A DNA stretch of 39,952 nucleotides. Origin: a virus. Taxonomy: Duplodnaviria > Heunggongvirae > Uroviricota > Caudoviricetes. Below the pieces are notes generated by a model, which ran no database searches, was not told where the DNA came from, and worked only from the letters and a program-made list of their open reading frames with translations. The stretch is taken from IMG/VR virus record IMGVR_UViG_2880384115_000007; one strand, 5' to 3'. How positions within the stretch are numbered: position 1 is the first letter of the stretch; each line of letters opens with the position of its first letter. Shown here in pieces: positions 1-39,952 of the stretch. The position numbers and the translations under genes were made by a program.

Positions 1-516
1 ATGAAATTTAAAAAATGTCTTCTGCCTGTGGCAATGTTAGCGTCATTCACTCTGGCAGGATGCCAGTCAAATGCTGATGATCATGCCGCCGATGTTTATC
101 AAACCGATCAACTGAATACCAAACAAGAAACTAAAACCGTTAATATTATTTCCATTCTTCCCGCAAAAGTTGCCGTAGACAACGCCCAAAATAAACGGAA
201 CGCACAAGCCTTCGGCGCGCTTATTGGCGCTGTCGCTGGCGGTGTTATCGGCCACAACGTCGGGTCTGGCAGCAATTCCGGAACGACGGCAGGTGCAGTT
301 GGCGGCGGAGCTGTAGGCGCGGCAGCGGGTTCTATGGTGAATGATAAAACCTTAGTGGAAGGTGTTTCTTTAACATATAAGGAAGGCACCAAAGTGTATA
401 CCTCCACCCAAGTGGGTAAAGAGTGCCAGTTTACGACAGGTTTAGCCGTTGTTATTACCACGACGTATAACGAAACGCGTATTCAGCCAAATACCAAATG
501 TCCTGAAAAGAGCTAA
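1..516 (+). CDS. Glycine-zipper lipoprotein (YcfJ-like); probable host flanking gene
   Basis: ATG at position 1; signal peptide with lipobox LAGC; Gly/Ala-rich run GALIGAVAGGVIGH typical of glycine-zipper lipoproteins; lies beyond the phage lysis end. Confidence 0.55.
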   Translation: MKFKKCLLPVAMLASFTLAGCQSNADDHAADVYQTDQLNTKQETKTVNIISILPAKVAVDNAQNKRNAQAFGALIGAVAGGVIGHNVGSGSNSGTTAGAVGGGAVGAAAGSMVNDKTLVEGVSLTYKEGTKVYTSTQVGKECQFTTGLAVVITTTYNETRIQPNTKCPEKS

Positions 517-531
517 TAATCAGGAGGAGTC

Positions 532-1071
532 ATGAAGAAAGTTTTTCTTTGCGCCATCTTAGCCTCCTTAAGCTATCCGGCTATCGCCTCATCATTGCAG
601 GATCAACTCTCGGCTGTCGCAGAAGCGGAACAGCAAGGTAAAAATGAAGAGCAAAGGCAGCATGACGAATGGGTCGCGGAGCGCAACAGGGAAATCCAGC
701 AAGAGAAGCAACGTCGCGCAAACGCCCAGGCCGCGGCTAATAAAAGAGCGGCAACGGCAGCAGCGAATAAGAAAGCTCGTCAGGATAAACTGGACGCCGA
801 AGCCACTGCGGACAAAAAACGCGATCAAAGTTATGAAGATGAGCTACGTAGCTTAGAGATTCAGAAACAAAAACTGGCGCTGGCGAAAGAAGAAGCCCGC
901 GTTAAGCGCGAAAACGAATTTATCGATCAGGAACTGAAGCACAAAGCTGCGCAAACCGATGTGGTGCAATCTGAAGCTGACGCAAACAGAAATATGACTG
1001 AAGGCGGTCGCGATCTGATGAAAAGCGTGGGTAAAGCAGAAGAGAATAAATCAGATAGCTGGTTTAACTAA
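532..1071 (+). CDS. Secreted, highly charged coiled-coil protein of unknown function; probable host gene
   Basis: AGGAGG RBS upstream of ATG 532; N-terminal signal peptide; K/E/R/Q/A-rich helical sequence; strong terminator downstream. Confidence 0.5.
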   Translation: MKKVFLCAILASLSYPAIASSLQDQLSAVAEAEQQGKNEEQRQHDEWVAERNREIQQEKQRRANAQAAANKRAATAAANKKARQDKLDAEATADKKRDQSYEDELRSLEIQKQKLALAKEEARVKRENEFIDQELKHKAAQTDVVQSEADANRNMTEGGRDLMKSVGKAEENKSDSWFN

Positions 1072-6075: not shown

Positions 6076-6211
6076 GATTTGAAATTACCAATAGGAGTGC
6101 TTATATTTACCTTTGCAGTAAATTTACATCGCACTCCTCTTGTGCCATAGTAATCGGGCACTGGCAAAATCCAGTGCCGGGATTGGCGTCCCGGGTTACT
6201 AAGTGGCGCAT

Positions 6212-6235
6212 ACCACGCCAGACGTGGTTTTTTTA
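6212..6235 (+). terminator. Rho-independent terminator
   Basis: Stem ACCACG / CGTGGT with 5-nt loop followed by seven T; ends a structured untranslated stretch 6076..6235. Confidence 0.55.
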
Positions 6236-6390
6236 TGCGTTAAGCACAGCTATATCCGAATTATGGTGGGCTGGGCAGGGGTCCGAAAGGACGCCGGTAC
6301 CACTTAGGCCGGTACGCCAACCTTGTCCAGTTCACCACCAGTAATTGGCGTTGCGGTGGTGATTAAAATCACTAAGTGGAGATAACCACC

Positions 6391-25069: not shown

Positions 25070-25146
25070 GTGGTATTAGCTCAGTTGGACAGAGCAACCG
25101 CCTTCTAAGCGGTTGGTCGCAGGTTCGAATCCTGCATGCCACGCCA
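25070..25146 (+). tRNA. tRNA-Arg (anticodon UCU)
   Basis: 77-nt cloverleaf folded by hand: 7-bp acceptor stem (one GU), D-arm GCTC/GAGC, anticodon stem ACCGC/GCGGT with loop CTTCTAA (anticodon TCT), T-arm GCAGG-TTCGAAT-CCTGC, 3' CCA encoded. Confidence 0.85.
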
Positions 25147-31449: not shown

Positions 31450-32250
31450 TTACTTGATAAATCCTGCCGCCTTTCCCCGCCTGTATTCCTCCATCAGCCA
31501 CTGCGCCGGTGTTATTCCCCCAAGGGTGGCGGCGTTAGGCATGCACCCGAAACTTCGCCCTGGTGGATGGTAAACGTCTCTCCCTGTGTCCGGAGGCGTA
31601 CTCATGGGCTCTGGCTTTGCCTGTATGCTGATCACCGGATCGGGTATCTGCTGTCCGGAAGCCACCTTTTTCGCCCAATCATCGAGCAGCCTGCGTGCGT
31701 GTTTCTCAACCTCAATCTCGCTAAGCTGGCGCTGATACATTGCACGGCGGGTATCACATACGACCCAGTACATAACCGGATGTCGCCACGGGAATCTTTC
31801 GGGACCACCAGGATATAAACTTTTTTCCTTGCTGTACCGGTGAAACTCCGCCATCACATCGTCAATGGTGACGCCAAGAACCATCTTGCTGTCTTTGCAC
31901 CACTTGATAAATTGCCCTGGAGACGGCCAGAACGGAGATTCACTGGCGCGGGCGTGGCGCATACCAGCAGAAACCTGTTCACGGGTTCGGATCCCCCCTT
32001 CGGCAAACGCAGCAATCCACTGCTGTTTTGCAGCAACTTCCTGCTCTGGCGTCTTCAGGTTGGTTACCACTGCCGCCGGAAACAGTTGTTTCAGCTGTTT
32101 AAAAAGGGCATCAACAAGCCTCTCTGCTGACATGTTCACCACATTGTCATTGTTGACGTACTGATGCTCATAACCTGACATGCGAGAAAGGGCTTCTCCG
32201 TCACGGTTTTGTATCGCGGTAAAAACGTTGTTCACAAGAAATCCTCCCAT
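31450..32250 (-). CDS. Replication protein P-like (helicase loader)
   Basis: Block QWIAAFAEGGIRTREQVSAGMRHARASESPFWPSPGQFIKWCKD closely parallels lambda P (QWVLAFRENGITTMEQVNAGMRVARRQNRPFLPSPGQFVAWCRE, recalled from memory); follows the O-like gene. Confidence 0.7.
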   Translation of the reverse strand: MGGFLVNNVFTAIQNRDGEALSRMSGYEHQYVNNDNVVNMSAERLVDALFKQLKQLFPAAVVTNLKTPEQEVAAKQQWIAAFAEGGIRTREQVSAGMRHARASESPFWPSPGQFIKWCKDSKMVLGVTIDDVMAEFHRYSKEKSLYPGGPERFPWRHPVMYWVVCDTRRAMYQRQLSEIEVEKHARRLLDDWAKKVASGQQIPDPVISIQAKPEPMSTPPDTGRDVYHPPGRSFGCMPNAATLGGITPAQWLMEEYRRGKAAGFIK

Positions 32251-33047
32251 GCTTCAGGGCTGTTCCAGTGCGGAACGTTGTTATCAGGTAATGTTGATTG
32301 CTTCTGTCTGCTAATCTGCAGCCGCCTTGCCAGCTTCTGCTCCCACTGTGCCTGATGGTATGCCTTACCCTCAGCCATCCAGTAAATTCTGAACTCTGCA
32401 AGTTCCTGTGCCGTTGGCAGACTGTCCAGGTAGATCCCCTGCAATGAGCTTTTCCGAAGAAAGTCATCTGATGGCTGCCATTGTTCATGCATGACAAATT
32501 TGCCTAATTGCCCTGGCCCACCAGGAGGAACAAAGTTATTCATCACGGCGTTGTTTGCGCCGGGGTCATGAGGCACAGAATCCCCGCTTTTTGTCCTGCT
32601 CTCCCTCTCTTGGTTAAATGACTGGTTATATGACTGGTTCTGGATCCCGTTTTTGGGATCATTCAACATCCCGTTTTTGGGATCATTCAACATCCCGTTT
32701 TTGGGTATATTCCCGTTTTCGGTAACATTACCGTTTTCGGGTTCATTGCCCCCCTCCCGGTTGCCTTTAATGTTCCCGTTTTTGGTTATATTAAGAGAGA
32801 AAACCCGCACTCTTTTTGTCGCTCCCTTTCTCTCTCCGGTATCTGAAATAAGCCCCATTTTCATGAGCGATATAAGCCCGGCCTGCACGGTTTTTTTATT
32901 CAGGCAAGTGTCTTTAACGAGGCGTTCTATGCTGGGGTAGCAGAGGTTATATTCATCGGCTCTGTCAGCCATCGAGAGCAGTATGAGCTTTAATGATGAG
33001 CTACCTGGATCTGTCTCCCAGGCCCAATCTGTTGCATGTCTGCTCAT
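32232..33047 (-). CDS. Replication initiator O-like protein with internal origin
   Basis: N-terminal HTH-like domain, central NGMLNDPK tandem repeat encoded by DNA iterons, C-terminal domain; GGAG RBS; precedes the P-like gene as in lambdoid replication modules. Confidence 0.6.
   Translation of the reverse strand: MSRHATDWAWETDPGSSSLKLILLSMADRADEYNLCYPSIERLVKDTCLNKKTVQAGLISLMKMGLISDTGERKGATKRVRVFSLNITKNGNIKGNREGGNEPENGNVTENGNIPKNGMLNDPKNGMLNDPKNGIQNQSYNQSFNQERESRTKSGDSVPHDPGANNAVMNNFVPPGGPGQLGKFVMHEQWQPSDDFLRKSSLQGIYLDSLPTAQELAEFRIYWMAEGKAYHQAQWEQKLARRLQISRQKQSTLPDNNVPHWNSPEAWEDFL
32644..32790. repeat. Iteron array (putative origin of replication) inside the O-like gene
   Basis: Two perfect 24-bp tandem repeats ATCCCGTTTTTGGGATCATTCAAC (32644..32691), each with an internal ATCCC...GGGAT inverted repeat, plus at least four degenerate copies; flanked by direct repeat TGACTGGTT at 32618..32640. 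Confidence 0.7.
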
Positions 33048-33372: not shown

Positions 33373-33392
33373 AGACCGCCGGGTGGCGGTCT
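33373..33392 (-). terminator. Stem-loop downstream of the cro-like gene (possible weak terminator)
   Basis: Perfect 8-bp stem AGACCGCC / GGCGGTCT with GGGT loop; only three U follow on the minus strand, so intrinsic termination is uncertain. Confidence 0.35.
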
Positions 33393-33413
33393 ACAGAGGG
33401 GTGTAGCTGGATA

Positions 33414-33644
33414 TCATGAGTAGAAGAAGTATGCCAGTTCTGCTTTTGAGCGCAACCATTGTCTTGTTTTACAGGCTTTAAAAAGCCCATTCATCAATAC
33501 TTTACCTGGCATTTTGCGCTTACCTGTTAAGTGAGTCTGGATATAGTGACTCGTCGTTCCGGCTTCCTGTGCGAAGGCTTCACGCTCATCCGGAGTAAGT
33601 GCAAGCCAGTGCTTTTTGAAATCGAAATGTCCGTTATCGCTCAT
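33414..33644 (-). CDS. Cro-like small regulator (putative)
   Basis: 76 aa, divergent from the CI-like gene across a 154-bp region with three operator dyads, followed by a stem-loop and the O/P genes; call rests on position, no sequence match to known Cro. Confidence 0.45.
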   Translation of the reverse strand: MSDNGHFDFKKHWLALTPDEREAFAQEAGTTSHYIQTHLTGKRKMPGKVLMNGLFKACKTRQWLRSKAELAYFFYS

Positions 33645-33680
33645 AGCTATTGCCTGATATTTATTTCAGATAATAAATAT

Positions 33681-33743
33681 TCACCCATAAGGTAACAAAA
33701 ATCAAGGATAGTTACCTATGAGGTGCATTTACCCGTTGGGTAA
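33681..33743. promoter_or_regulatory. Tripartite operator region between cI-like and cro-like genes
   Basis: Three dyads with identical 5-bp spacing: TCACC-N5-GGTAA (33681..33695), TTACC-N5-GGTGC (33712..33726), TTACC-N5-GGTAA (33729..33743). Confidence 0.6.
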
Positions 33744-34691: not shown

Positions 34692-34991
34692 ATGAACGTT
34701 AATCAGCAGAAAAATCTTCAAAAAATCATGCTGGCATTCGACAAGGACTACCGCCTGTCAGAACAGCTATATGACCGACAAGTTGAACTGATCGAGAGCA
34801 TCCGGCTTCATCAACTGGCCTCAACTTTTGACGCTGTAACAGGCAAAGGAGTTCGCCAGGAAGTGCTGGAGGCAGCTAAAGACAGCCATGAGTTCGAAGA
34901 ACTTATGGATGCCTACCGGCGCGAGGCAATGGCAATTATCGCCCGCTGGGATCTGGCGGATCGGATTGATGGGCAGAGGGAAGCGGCATGA
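34692..34991 (+). CDS. Hypothetical protein
   Basis: Start placed at MNVNQQ (ATG 34692), directly after the upstream small ORF stop; about 99 aa helical protein; coupled to the exonuclease gene. Confidence 0.45.
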   Translation: MNVNQQKNLQKIMLAFDKDYRLSEQLYDRQVELIESIRLHQLASTFDAVTGKGVRQEVLEAAKDSHEFEELMDAYRREAMAIIARWDLADRIDGQREAA

Positions 34992-35809
34992 AACCGGGAA
35001 TTTATTTCGACATCAGCAACGAAGACTACCACGCCGGTGACGGCGTGAGTAAGTCGCAACTGGACATGGTTGCCAAGAATCCGGCGCTTCTTAAATGGGT
35101 TCAGGCAGCACCAGAAGACGAAGAGAAAAAGTCTGCACTGGATATGGGAACCGCATTGCACTGTCTGCTTCTGGAGCCTGGAGAATTCGACAAACGCTTC
35201 ATTGTTTCACCGAAGTTCGATCGTCGGACAAAACAAGGTAAAGCTGACGAAGAAGCATTTCTTCGTGATGTGGCGGATATGGGTATTACGGTACTTGATG
35301 TCGAGCAGTGGCGAAAACTGGAGCTGATGCGTGATAGCGCAATGGCTCATCCGGCGGCACGCTGGATGCTGGAAGCACCTGGTTACTGCGAAGCATCAAT
35401 GTACTGGAACGATGAAGAGACGGGTGAGTTGTGCCGAATTCGTCCAGACAAATGGCTGAACGAGCACAACGTGATCGTCGACGTGAAAAAGGTTGCAGAT
35501 ATGGACCGTTTTGCACGCCACATCGAGGAATTCCGCTACCACGTGCAGGACGCAATGTACCGCGAAGGCGCAATGAGGGTTACTGGTCAGCCGCATGGTT
35601 TTTTCTTTCTTGCCGTCAGCGAAAGCATTGATTGTGGTCGGTATCCGGTACGCGTGTTCGAGCTGGATGCGCCAGATGTCGATGCCGGGCACGCTCTGTT
35701 CCGCCGGGATCTGAATACCTATCACGAATGCCGCATCAACGATGAATGGGGCGGAGTGGAAATTATTAAACGCCCTGACTGGGCACGTAAACAGGATATG
35801 TACGTATGA
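34988..35809 (+). CDS. PD-(D/E)XK exonuclease (RecE/YqaJ-like recombination exonuclease)
   Basis: 273 aa with nuclease-like D...E.K spacing; immediately upstream of and coupled to recT. Confidence 0.55.
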   Translation: MKPGIYFDISNEDYHAGDGVSKSQLDMVAKNPALLKWVQAAPEDEEKKSALDMGTALHCLLLEPGEFDKRFIVSPKFDRRTKQGKADEEAFLRDVADMGITVLDVEQWRKLELMRDSAMAHPAARWMLEAPGYCEASMYWNDEETGELCRIRPDKWLNEHNVIVDVKKVADMDRFARHIEEFRYHVQDAMYREGAMRVTGQPHGFFFLAVSESIDCGRYPVRVFELDAPDVDAGHALFRRDLNTYHECRINDEWGGVEIIKRPDWARKQDMYV

Positions 35810-36687
35810 GCAATGATATCGCAATCACATCACAACCAGGCGCAACTGTAGGCACTGCTGCGGCAATCTTCAGCCCCGAGGGCATGAATCAACTGGTGCG
35901 TTTCGCTGAGTTGATGTCACAAAGCAAAGCGACTGTACCGAAACATCTTGAAGGCAAACCTGCCGATTGCCTGGCGGTGACCATGCAGGCGGCACAGTGG
36001 GGAATGAACCCTTTCGCCGTGGCGCAGAAAACGCATGTGGTAAACGGAACGTTAGGCTACGAAGCACAGTTGGTAAACGCGGTCGTATCCTCTTCCAGCC
36101 TGCTAGCGACACGCCTGAATTATCGCTGGAGCGGTGACTGGTCGAATGTTAACGGCAAAACAGATAAATCACCGAATCTGACGGTAACTGTGTCAGCAGT
36201 CCTTAAAGGAGAAGCAGAACCACGTGAGCTTACCATCAGTATGGCGCAAGCCGGAGTGCGTAACTCTCCATTGTGGGAACAGGATCCGCGCCAGCAACTT
36301 GCCTATCTTTGCACGAAACGATGGGCTCGCCTGCACGCTCCTGATGTACTTCTTGGTGTTTACACCCCTGACGAATTACAGGAAACGGCACCGCGCGTTG
36401 AGCGAGACATTACTCCGCAAACAACTACTGCTGCGGGAATGAACAGTCTGATCAACGCTAAACCAGTGAAAAAGCCTGATGAGCAAACGCGTAAAGCGGA
36501 TAGCCGTGATCCAGAAGAAATGCTGATGGCCTTTACCAGCGCAGCGATGAATTACAGCACTGTCTCCGAACTGGATAAGGCTTACAAATACATTGCACAA
36601 AAACTTTCAGATGATGACGAACTGCTGGCAAAAGCCACCGACGTTTACAGCGTTCGTCGGGAAGAATTAAACGAAACATCTATGTAA
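35806..36687 (+). CDS. recT: RecT-family single-strand annealing recombinase
   Basis: 293 aa; paired with an upstream exonuclease; composition and length consistent with RecT-family proteins. Confidence 0.65.
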   Translation: MSNDIAITSQPGATVGTAAAIFSPEGMNQLVRFAELMSQSKATVPKHLEGKPADCLAVTMQAAQWGMNPFAVAQKTHVVNGTLGYEAQLVNAVVSSSSLLATRLNYRWSGDWSNVNGKTDKSPNLTVTVSAVLKGEAEPRELTISMAQAGVRNSPLWEQDPRQQLAYLCTKRWARLHAPDVLLGVYTPDELQETAPRVERDITPQTTTAAGMNSLINAKPVKKPDEQTRKADSRDPEEMLMAFTSAAMNYSTVSELDKAYKYIAQKLSDDDELLAKATDVYSVRREELNETSM

Positions 36688-38695: not shown

Positions 38696-39952
38696 TTATT
38701 TATTACTGTCTTCCATCCACTTCTCAAACTTCGACGGGGAGAACGGAATCAGATCCGTATGCTCCCCGTCAATCCAGGAATCAATCATATCTGCCCACTG
38801 CTGCAACATGTAGGCGCGCTGTCTGGCGTATTCCGCTTTGTTATATACGGCGCGCACACCTTTCTGCTCATGTGCCAGAGCCTTTTCAATCCAGTCTGAA
38901 GGATAACCAGCCTCATGCAACAACGTACTGGCTGTACGGCGCATATCGTGTACGGTGAAGTCCTGAATATGCTCACCATCTTCATTTATTATTTTCACCG
39001 TTCTGTCGATCAGAGAGTTCAACGCGGCATTAGATAATGGCTTCCGGAAATTGTAACGACCAGGAACCAGGTATTCACTTCCACCAGCGCACATCTGCAA
39101 CCCAACCAATATATCCTGTGCTTGTTTAGGCAGGTAAATAACGTGCGCCCGGCTTCCCTTCATGCGGCCTGAAGGAATTGTCCATGTCCATTTTTTAAAA
39201 TCTATTTCATCCCACGTTGCATTGGTGAATTCGCCTTTACGAACCATAGTGATAAGCACCAGCTTTAAAGCCATTTTCATAGTGCCCATAGCACCAATGG
39301 CATCCAGCGTGCGGAAGAACAGACCAATTTCTTCTGGTGTCAGTGTTCGCTCTCGTGGTTTAAATATGGCGATAGACGAAGGTTTAATGTCAGCAGCAGG
39401 ATTAAACAAACCATGACCACGGTCATTGGCGTGACGGTATACGCTGCTGATGATCTCCCTGGCCTGTACTGCTGTTGCCCGACCACCGCGTTCGACAATC
39501 CGGTCACACAAATCACGAACCATCGATGTGGTAATTTCAGCCATCATTTTGTTGCCAAGAACCGGAAGTATGTCACGGTCGATCACCGCCTGCTTCATTG
39601 CGCGGGTACTTTCAGCCAGGATGACGTGTTTCATATAACTGTCGGTATGTACCGCAAACGTCTCGGCACCACGAATCTTTTTGATACCGTCACGTTTAGC
39701 CGCAGCCGGCGACTGGCCTGCTTTAAGCAGCTTCTTTGCAGCAATCAGTTCTTCTCGCGCTTCTGCCAGGCTGATACCGTCACGCCCATACTGCCCGATT
39801 ACCAGTGTTTCGCGGCGACCGTTGATACGGTAGTCATAGCGAAACGAGACCGTACCTGACGTAAGCACAGCTACATACAGCCCGTCACGATCGGAAACTT
39901 TGTACAGTTTGTCCTGTGGCTTGAGGTTTTTTAATTTTGTATCGGTAAGCAC
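38696..39952 (-). CDS. int: Tyrosine integrase, P4-like family (N-terminus at the window edge)
   Basis: 418 aa; N-terminal arm domain (LTDTKLKNLKPQDKLYKVSDRDGLYVAV) and C-terminal catalytic domain (…HDMRRTASTLL…ALAH…VYNKAEY); ORF begins with GTG at the last window base so the true start may lie outside. Confidence 0.85.
   Translation of the reverse strand: MLTDTKLKNLKPQDKLYKVSDRDGLYVAVLTSGTVSFRYDYRINGRRETLVIGQYGRDGISLAEAREELIAAKKLLKAGQSPAAAKRDGIKKIRGAETFAVHTDSYMKHVILAESTRAMKQAVIDRDILPVLGNKMMAEITTSMVRDLCDRIVERGGRATAVQAREIISSVYRHANDRGHGLFNPAADIKPSSIAIFKPRERTLTPEEIGLFFRTLDAIGAMGTMKMALKLVLITMVRKGEFTNATWDEIDFKKWTWTIPSGRMKGSRAHVIYLPKQAQDILVGLQMCAGGSEYLVPGRYNFRKPLSNAALNSLIDRTVKIINEDGEHIQDFTVHDMRRTASTLLHEAGYPSDWIEKALAHEQKGVRAVYNKAEYARQRAYMLQQWADMIDSWIDGEHTDLIPFSPSKFEKWMEDSNK

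Follow-up and report, generated by a model that had tools for sequence, protein, structure and literature searches.

A candidate iteron-type replication origin inside the initiator gene of a phiV10-like Escherichia coli phage

Where does a temperate phage of the phiV10 type begin its vegetative replication? The question is raised by a cluster of short repeats in the IMG/VR virus record IMGVR_UViG_2880384115_000007, a stretch of 39,952 base pairs (bp; hereafter the window) that matches Escherichia phage phiV10 (genus Uetakevirus) and related phages at 98% nucleotide identity. An earlier reading of the letters alone (the original prediction) had placed an iteron-type origin at positions 32617-32792, inside a gene likened to gene O of phage lambda. 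The present analysis indicates that these repeats probably are the vegetative replication origin of a phiV10-like temperate E. coli phage, lying where the phage's initiator gene codes for a linker and bound by the product of that same gene. We favor this reading because an array of dyads occupies the same place in relatives, because its spacings run through all reading frames and its dyad arms covary, because no array accompanies homologs that have only the C-terminal domain in common with the initiator, and because the strongest sites vary little within the species.

At the DNA level, Tandem Repeats Finder, the check that had been proposed for the repeats, recovers them as three arrays within 32611-32747 and detects no other tandem repeat in the whole window. 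A repeat search for the 24-mer family yields six copies, matching the two perfect and at least four degenerate copies first described; across 32644-32788 these form six 16-bp dyads (two perfect, one near-perfect, and three degenerate), designated I1 to I6 in the direction of the gene and separated start to start by 45, 18, 18, 24, and 24 bp (Table 1). The unit on the gene strand, ATCCCAAAAACGGGAT, is a hyphenated dyad, ATCCC-AAAAAC-GGGAT, with 5-bp arms around an A-rich spacer of 6 nucleotides (nt), and in both perfect copies the ATCCC/GGGAT arms are complementary at 5/5 positions, as the original prediction had it. A scan of the window with the core TCCCGTTTTTGGGA, allowing up to 3 mismatches, gives 7 matches, 6 of them inside 32645-32787; the seventh, at 39553 with 3 mismatches, is at chance level and was set aside. 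The same scan thus reveals no second dyad cluster in the 40-kb window that might serve as an alternative origin or operator, and with neither another cluster nor another tandem repeat there is no alternative origin candidate within it. The interval first proposed covers the iteron array, but the third of the 12-mers that follow the iterons extends to 32605. Dam sites (GATC) at 32643, 32657, and 32681 overlap the right-arm ends (GGGAT-C) of I4, I5, and I6, so that 40 bp contain three such sites, against an average of 3.8 per kb across the window. Use of the origin could plausibly be modulated at these sites by methylation or SeqA.

The inverted repeats formed between adjacent iterons, together with a T-run on the plus strand, might alternatively be taken for terminators of antisense transcription, and a scan does return terminator-like sites on that strand at 32654-32673 and 32678-32697. 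However, the stems are weak, with 3 G-C among their 6 pairs and an 8-nt loop, the 5 sites in the scan compare with 2.8 +/- 1.8 expected from shuffles of the region, and such hairpins arise as a geometric by-product wherever two dyads lie 24 bp apart. Further, relatives with 17- or 22-bp spacing do not keep them, and this explanation is scarcely credible. No Rfam family overlaps the repeat region.

All copies of the repeat fall inside a single minus-strand open reading frame (ORF), where, as had been stated, they encode NGMLNDPK-type repeats (peptide PKNGMLNDPKNGMLNDPKNG); they take up gene nt 260-404, or amino acids (aa) 87-135, between a winged helix (aa 1-90) and a DnaT-like domain (aa 184-252). 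The N-terminus matches Pfam HTH_36 (aa 18-67, E=1.8e-10), with a fold that spans aa 1-90, and the C-terminus matches the Pfam DnaT domain (aa 184-252, E=1.2e-15); at full length the protein matches phrog_1032, "replication initiation protein" (E=1.3e-108). Residues 180-265 align to residues 85-170 of DnaT, its C-terminal domain for binding single-stranded DNA (PDB 4ou6, 4ou7, 6aep, and 9zbt; E~1e-19 to 1e-21). In an AlphaFold2 model built on 59 sequences, the winged helix at aa 1-90 is predicted with a predicted local distance difference test (pLDDT) score of 85-98 and an H-H-H-H-beta-beta topology, the linker at aa 94-208 falls below a pLDDT of 50 and is predicted to be disordered, and the C-terminal domain is poorly resolved owing to the shallow alignment there. 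The protein search with an N-domain profile returned mainly short fragments and served only as alignment depth. The iterons and 12-mers lie almost wholly in the low-pLDDT linker, while I1 (aa 87-92) falls at the end of the winged-helix segment.

The description of this gene as "O-like" could be retained for its position and role only. The family PF04492 matches lambda O (E=5.7e-36) but not the initiator, BLASTP between the two is not significant, and hhalign assigns a probability of 15%, so that the initiator was rejected as a lambda O homolog. Nor does E. coli DnaT (primosomal protein I) provide a close counterpart, as the likeness is confined to the C-terminal domain; DnaT is without the HTH_36 winged helix that makes up the initiator's first 90 residues, and the initiator gene belongs to a phage early-right operon in which a P-family gene comes next. 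To judge from its architecture, the protein is an origin-binding initiator and not a replication-restart DnaT ortholog. When the N-domain model was compared with the PDB by Foldseek, only generic winged-helix matches came back (best E=3.6e-3), too weak for a specific structural family to be assigned to the domain. The matches include N-terminal domains of plasmid initiators (4pql, 5kbj, a Rep-DNA complex, and 4pt7) that likewise have their iterons within the rep gene. RepA_N-type initiators of Gram-positive bacteria, such as RepA of the staphylococcal plasmid pSK41, combine a winged-helix N-domain, a linker whose coding DNA inside the rep gene contains the iterons, and a C-domain that recruits host replication proteins. 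However, these matches (E~1e-2) are no better than those to generic MarR or Fur winged helices, Pfam RepA_N finds no match in the initiator, and the hosts and partner proteins are different.

If the repeats mattered only as protein, they would be a slippage-prone, low-complexity NGMLNDPK spacer between two domains, with the dyad symmetry incidental. Every copy in the window is in frame, as each of the five spacings is divisible by 3, disorder is predicted for the region, and expansions and contractions by whole units are tolerated; the window alone is thus compatible with a peptide repeat, and it is the relatives that supply the frame argument. One genome per species was scanned with the N-domain alignment as query, which provided 80 loci, 76 of them long enough to analyze, at 40-87% identity and drawn from Enterobacterales, Vibrio, Acinetobacter, Pseudoalteromonas, Desulfovibrio, Sphingomonadales, and Burkholderiaceae. 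In the 330 nt past the N-domain, the best 12-mer of these 76 loci recurs 4.9 times on average, versus 2.0 in a same-sized control, and at least four copies are present in 65 of the 76, at the same place as in the window. The consensus of the array is always a variant of one dyad type, with a 6-nt spacer in 55 of 65 loci, and the arms covary symmetrically between lineages (ATCCC/GGGAT, GTCCC/GGGAC, GTACC/GGTAC, and CCCCC/GGGGG). Adjacent copies are most often 17 (70 times), 22 (46), 24 (42), or 18 bp (16) apart, and because the spacings modulo 3 are roughly uniform (79/67/57), every reading frame is represented among the copies, which are conserved as DNA and not as a peptide repeat. Dyads at 17-, 22-, and 25-bp steps in relatives are difficult to reconcile with a peptide constraint, as is Acinetobacter phage AP22, which keeps ACCC-N6-GGGT dyads while the encoded peptides differ radically (PKNG, PIYG, and PKFG); Edwardsiella phage GF-2 likewise keeps the dyad while its peptide changes. 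The most extreme relative, a metagenome-assembled genome of Pseudomonadota (JAYXXU010000338.1), has eleven CCCAAAAACGGG-type dyads in one initiator gene, at gene nt ~308-547 and in steps of 17, 22, 24, 25, and 46 bp.

The array also follows one half of a modular protein. HTH_36 is present in all 64 of the homologous initiators scanned (64/64), but a DnaT domain in only 6 and Phg_2220_C in 5, and in most of these initiators the C-domain is unknown to Pfam. By tblastn against phage records, the N-domain is common to GF-2, Vibrio phage Her, AP22, and PPompW prophages, and the DnaT-like C-domain alone is common to Tyrion, SPN1S, TL-2011b, and Rac. Phages with the N-domain have an array of this kind in the corresponding position (GF-2, AATGATCCCAAAATTGGGATTTTG x2.8; Her, CCGAAAACGGTACTTTGAATAGGC x4.6), whereas the sharers of the C-domain only that were checked, Tyrion, SPN1S, and TL-2011b among them, have none. 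The GF-2 initiator (locus L085, 1501-2343) is a natural chimera: its N-domain, with matching iterons, is of the phiV10 type, and its C-domain is lambda-O-type, aligning with aa 156-299 of lambda O at 62% identity (E=2e-67). This comparative evidence ties the array to the DNA-binding domain at the N-terminus and shows selection on the DNA itself. Orthologous genes carry the repeats, a point on which the original prediction had allowed itself to be judged.

Variation among close relatives points the same way. From 80 IMG/VR loci, 77 genes of equal 816-nt length were obtained, which collapse to 67 near-identical haplotypes. I4-I6 plus the 12-mers (gene nt 341-440) vary least within the gene, with 4/100 variable sites versus 99/716 in the rest of it (Fisher p=0.0035), and 1/33 versus 57/239 when only third codon positions are counted (p=0.005); the 12-mers themselves are nearly invariant across the 67 haplotypes. 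Nowhere does the gene vary more than in the linker segments that flank I4-I6 and the 12-mers (Table 1), and many of the changes there are non-synonymous. In the spacer between I1 and I2 (window ~32744-32772, peptide GNREGGN), for example, 7/27 sites vary, non-synonymous changes included. Against a spacer maintained for its peptide, synonymous sites in I4-I6 and the 12-mers scarcely vary, the linker on either side is hypervariable even in its amino acids, and the periods of the 12/13-mers described below are not multiples of 3. The peptide explanation is therefore very unlikely. Copy number shifts in whole units and yields proteins of 263-311 aa: relative to the window, 24-mer copies range from one fewer (BP9) to five more (P0001), the 18-mer gains up to two extra copies (L053 and L072), and the 12-mer array comprises 2.4 or 3.4 copies. 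The extent of variation is comparable to that between lambda, with 4 iterons, and the Shiga toxin (Stx) phages, with 6 (PMC7466680).

Directly after the last iteron lies a second element, three tandem 12-mers (aa ~136-147). The direct repeat TGACTGGTT, first described as flanking one side of the origin, is present, but it is more than a flank, as it belongs to this 12-bp array and so to a 12/13-mer element that is conserved. Of the 30-mers adjoining the strong iterons, that of the 12-mers is the least stable (-34.9 kcal/mol versus a regional mean of -40.6 +/- 3.3), and within the gene only the AT-rich stretch around I1, which falls in one of the gene's two least stable 30-mers, is less stable. 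Across the relatives, the iterons are followed in 61/65 loci by two or more [GT]AA[CT]C pentamers spaced 11-14 nt apart, versus 1/488 control windows in the same genes, and three such pentamers are found after the last iteron in 45 of 65. The steps are 12 (55 times), 13 (42), or 11 nt (9), which, as they include non-multiples of 3, point to a DNA-level repeat; in many relatives an A-rich tract of 65-80% AT follows further downstream. The 12-mers are thus a candidate DNA-unwinding or helicase-loading element, and the bipartite module of iterons and 12-mers is co-inherited with the N-domain across very distant relatives. It is possible, and we propose it only tentatively, that the 12/13-mers (KAAYC-N7/8) are a sequence-specific, family-wide origin element (an unwinding/helicase-loading site or a single-strand binding site) and not a generic AT-rich tract, common to a widespread and undescribed class of phage origins in which an HTH_36 winged-helix initiator is combined with C-terminal recruitment domains that can replace one another (DnaT-like, lambda-O-like, Phg_2220_C, and others). 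Such an element, if real, would be comparable to the 13-mers of oriC or to the Rep-bound strand of the DNA-unwinding element in iteron plasmids.

The likeness to ori-lambda that had been claimed for the locus holds for its layout. In lambda, the annotated iterons (39034-39118) are 18-bp dyads of the ATCCCTCAAAACGAGGGA type, spaced 20, 24, and 23 bp apart in the middle of O, where the gene codes for a linker, and a high-AT region comes after them (PMC6022878, PMC7466680). Both origins lie in the middle of an initiator gene, in DNA that codes for the flexible linker joining the DNA-binding N-domain to the C-domain, and both consist of 4-6 hyphenated-dyad iterons with an A-rich center and a TCCC...AAAAC...GGGA flavor, at comparable spacings (18 and 24 bp here). 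In both, a less stable element lies downstream in gene direction, a P-family loader gene follows, and iteron number differs among relatives. However, the initiator belongs to another protein family than lambda O, with a DnaT-like C-domain in place of the lambda-O-type one, and the geometry of the dyad differs, as it is 16 bp with CCC-N6-GGG here and 18 bp with CCC-N9-GGG in lambda. The lambda-style high-AT tract that was expected beside the iterons is weak: the 40 nt past I6, with their sequence-conserved 12/13-mers, are 57.5% AT, versus 77.5% for the 39-bp tract after lambda's fourth iteron and a gene mean of 51.7%. Because the iteron has 6 and not 9 bases between CCC and GGG, cross-incompatibility with co-resident lambda-type replicons, which the original prediction had suggested, is not predicted. 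An origin within its initiator gene is in itself an ordinary, textbook arrangement.

By analogy with lambda O and ori-lambda, a model can be constructed for the use of this origin. Dimers of the N-terminal winged helix would bind the iterons, the strong 24-bp-spaced I4-I6 first, to form an O-some-like nucleoprotein complex, and stress from this complex would open the adjoining 12-mer region. The DnaT-like C-domain and the P-family loader, in the manner of lambda O and P, would then bring host DnaB onto the opened DNA, with the DnaT-like domain possibly binding the loader, single-stranded DNA, or both. The upstream early-right promoter would drive transcription through the origin.

A different use of the same binding sites has to be weighed, in which they are mainly regulatory, through titration or handcuffing, through autoregulation of the O/P-type genes by a transcription roadblock, or through exclusion of related phages, while replication starts elsewhere. 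Arrays can serve copy control in iteron plasmids and, for example, on chromosome II of Vibrio cholerae (PMC3401445), the high-AT tract that an unwinding element should have is weak at this locus, and iteron number varies freely between strains, from ~5 to ~11 sites. However, the 40-kb window has no other dyad cluster to be the real origin and no other tandem repeats, and the 12/13-mer element always comes after the array, followed in most relatives by the A-rich 65-80% AT tract, which is the layout of an origin and not of an operator. The same logic governs the experimentally defined ori-lambda (PMC7466680, PMC6022878). A mainly regulatory role is therefore improbable, if less so than a role in the peptide alone.

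Several points count against the array being the vegetative origin. We infer binding of the N-domain to the dyads from their co-inheritance, and the role given to the DnaT-like domain is a guess. The low variability of the identical tandem copies could come in part from homogenization by slippage or conversion, the spacings within the window are all in frame, the low stability of the 12-mer region is modest (~1.7 standard deviations), and its AT content is far below that of the lambda tract. In addition, the phiV10 record annotates terminators in the region but no origin or repeat feature, and the literature, in a search of incomplete coverage, holds no description of an origin for phiV10-type phages or for the HTH_36 initiator class. 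The origin of phiV10-type phages thus appears to be previously undescribed.

Table 1. Positions of the repeats, the segments of the initiator gene, and the neighboring features; window coordinates unless gene nt is stated.
Feature	Position	Strand	Description	Basis
Iteron I6	32644..32659		Perfect dyad ATCCCAAAAACGGGAT on gene strand; last in gene direction, adjoins 12-mers	
Iteron I5	32668..32683		Perfect dyad ATCCCAAAAACGGGAT	
Iteron I4	32692..32707		TACCCAAAAACGGGAT; 1 mismatch in 14-nt core	
Iteron I3	32710..32725		Degenerate, TTACCGAAAACGGGAA; 18 bp from I4	
Iteron I2	32728..32743		Degenerate, AACCCGAAAACGGTAA; 18 bp from I3	
Iteron I1	32773..32788		Distal degenerate copy TAACCAAAAACGGGAA; 45 bp from I2; directly after N-domain coding part	
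Tandem array	32644-32705		Period 24, 2.6 copies, 100% match, unit ATCCCGTTTTTGGGATCATTCAAC	Tandem Repeats Finder
Tandem array	32693-32747		Period 18, 3.1 copies, 78% match	Tandem Repeats Finder
Tandem array	32611-32639		Period 12, 2.4 copies, 94% match, unit TGGTTAAATGAC	Tandem Repeats Finder
Three tandem 12-mers (KAACC...)	32605..32640		GAACCAGTCATA, TAACCAGTCATT, TAACCAAGAGAG on gene strand	Tandem Repeats Finder, conservation, stability
I1-I2 spacer	gene nt 277-303		26% variable sites	
Weak iterons	gene nt 304-340		32% variable sites	
Downstream linker	gene nt 441-540		20% variable sites	
Replication initiator gene	32232..33047	-	271 aa	ORF, Pfam, PHROG, PDB match, AlphaFold2
Lambda-P-family helicase-loader gene	31450..32250	-	phrog_109 "P-like helicase loader"	Pfam Phage_lambda_P (PF06992), E=1.5e-56; PHROG
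Early-right context upstream of initiator	33373..33698	-	Promoter, cro-like gene, and terminator-like hairpin	
pR-like promoter	33698..33670	-		Consensus scan only
cro-like gene	33414..33644	-		phrog_35 match
Terminator-like hairpin	33392..33373	-	Coincides with a terminator annotated in the phiV10 record	Consensus scan only

The initiator gene stands in an early-right neighborhood. The P-family loader gene lies directly downstream and overlaps the initiator stop, and upstream stand the promoter, cro-like gene, and hairpin of Table 1 and a divergent repressor gene. These early-right elements would deliver transcription into the replication genes, and we infer from this a part in origin activation. 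The initiator gene is present in 423/5,426 complete E. coli genomes. A repressor/initiator/P module of the phiV10 type, at 98-99% identity, also occurs near the end of the 138-kb Vequintavirus record of phage BP9 (PP488543.1, 134084-137060) and in the 115-kb record "phage PH444" (PP350014.1, 90452-92452); both records may be chimeric assemblies or reflect prophage contamination. Elsewhere in the window, ARAGORN and Rfam both find a tRNA-Arg gene (anticodon TCT) at 25070-25146 (+), and Rfam reports, above the gathering score, an isrK Hfq-binding RNA (6158-6234) beside a C4 antisense RNA (6259-6342), both on the plus strand, a pair that resembles an antisense-RNA module of the P1/P7 type for immunity or antirepressor control. 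Genes resembling recE and recT at 34988-36687 (+) are separate ORFs of 273 and 293 aa with a 4-nt overlap; the phiV10 record has one fused "recET" coding sequence at the equivalent place.

No principle changes with this locus, since the concept of an origin inside an initiator gene is textbook knowledge. The analysis nevertheless provides a concrete origin candidate for prophages of the phiV10/Uetakevirus type, and phiV10 is in use as a reporter and engineering phage for O157. It also suggests a replicon type whose specificity would be distinct from that of lambda, which bears on interference between co-resident prophages and on phage-derived vectors, and it may help to correct records in which the initiator is routinely mis-named "primosomal protein DnaT". 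The most useful by-product is the family-wide module of iterons and 12/13-mers, as the recognition rule drawn from it, dyad iterons and then KAAYC 12/13-mers right after an HTH_36 domain, may point to origins in many unannotated phages and prophages of Proteobacteria.

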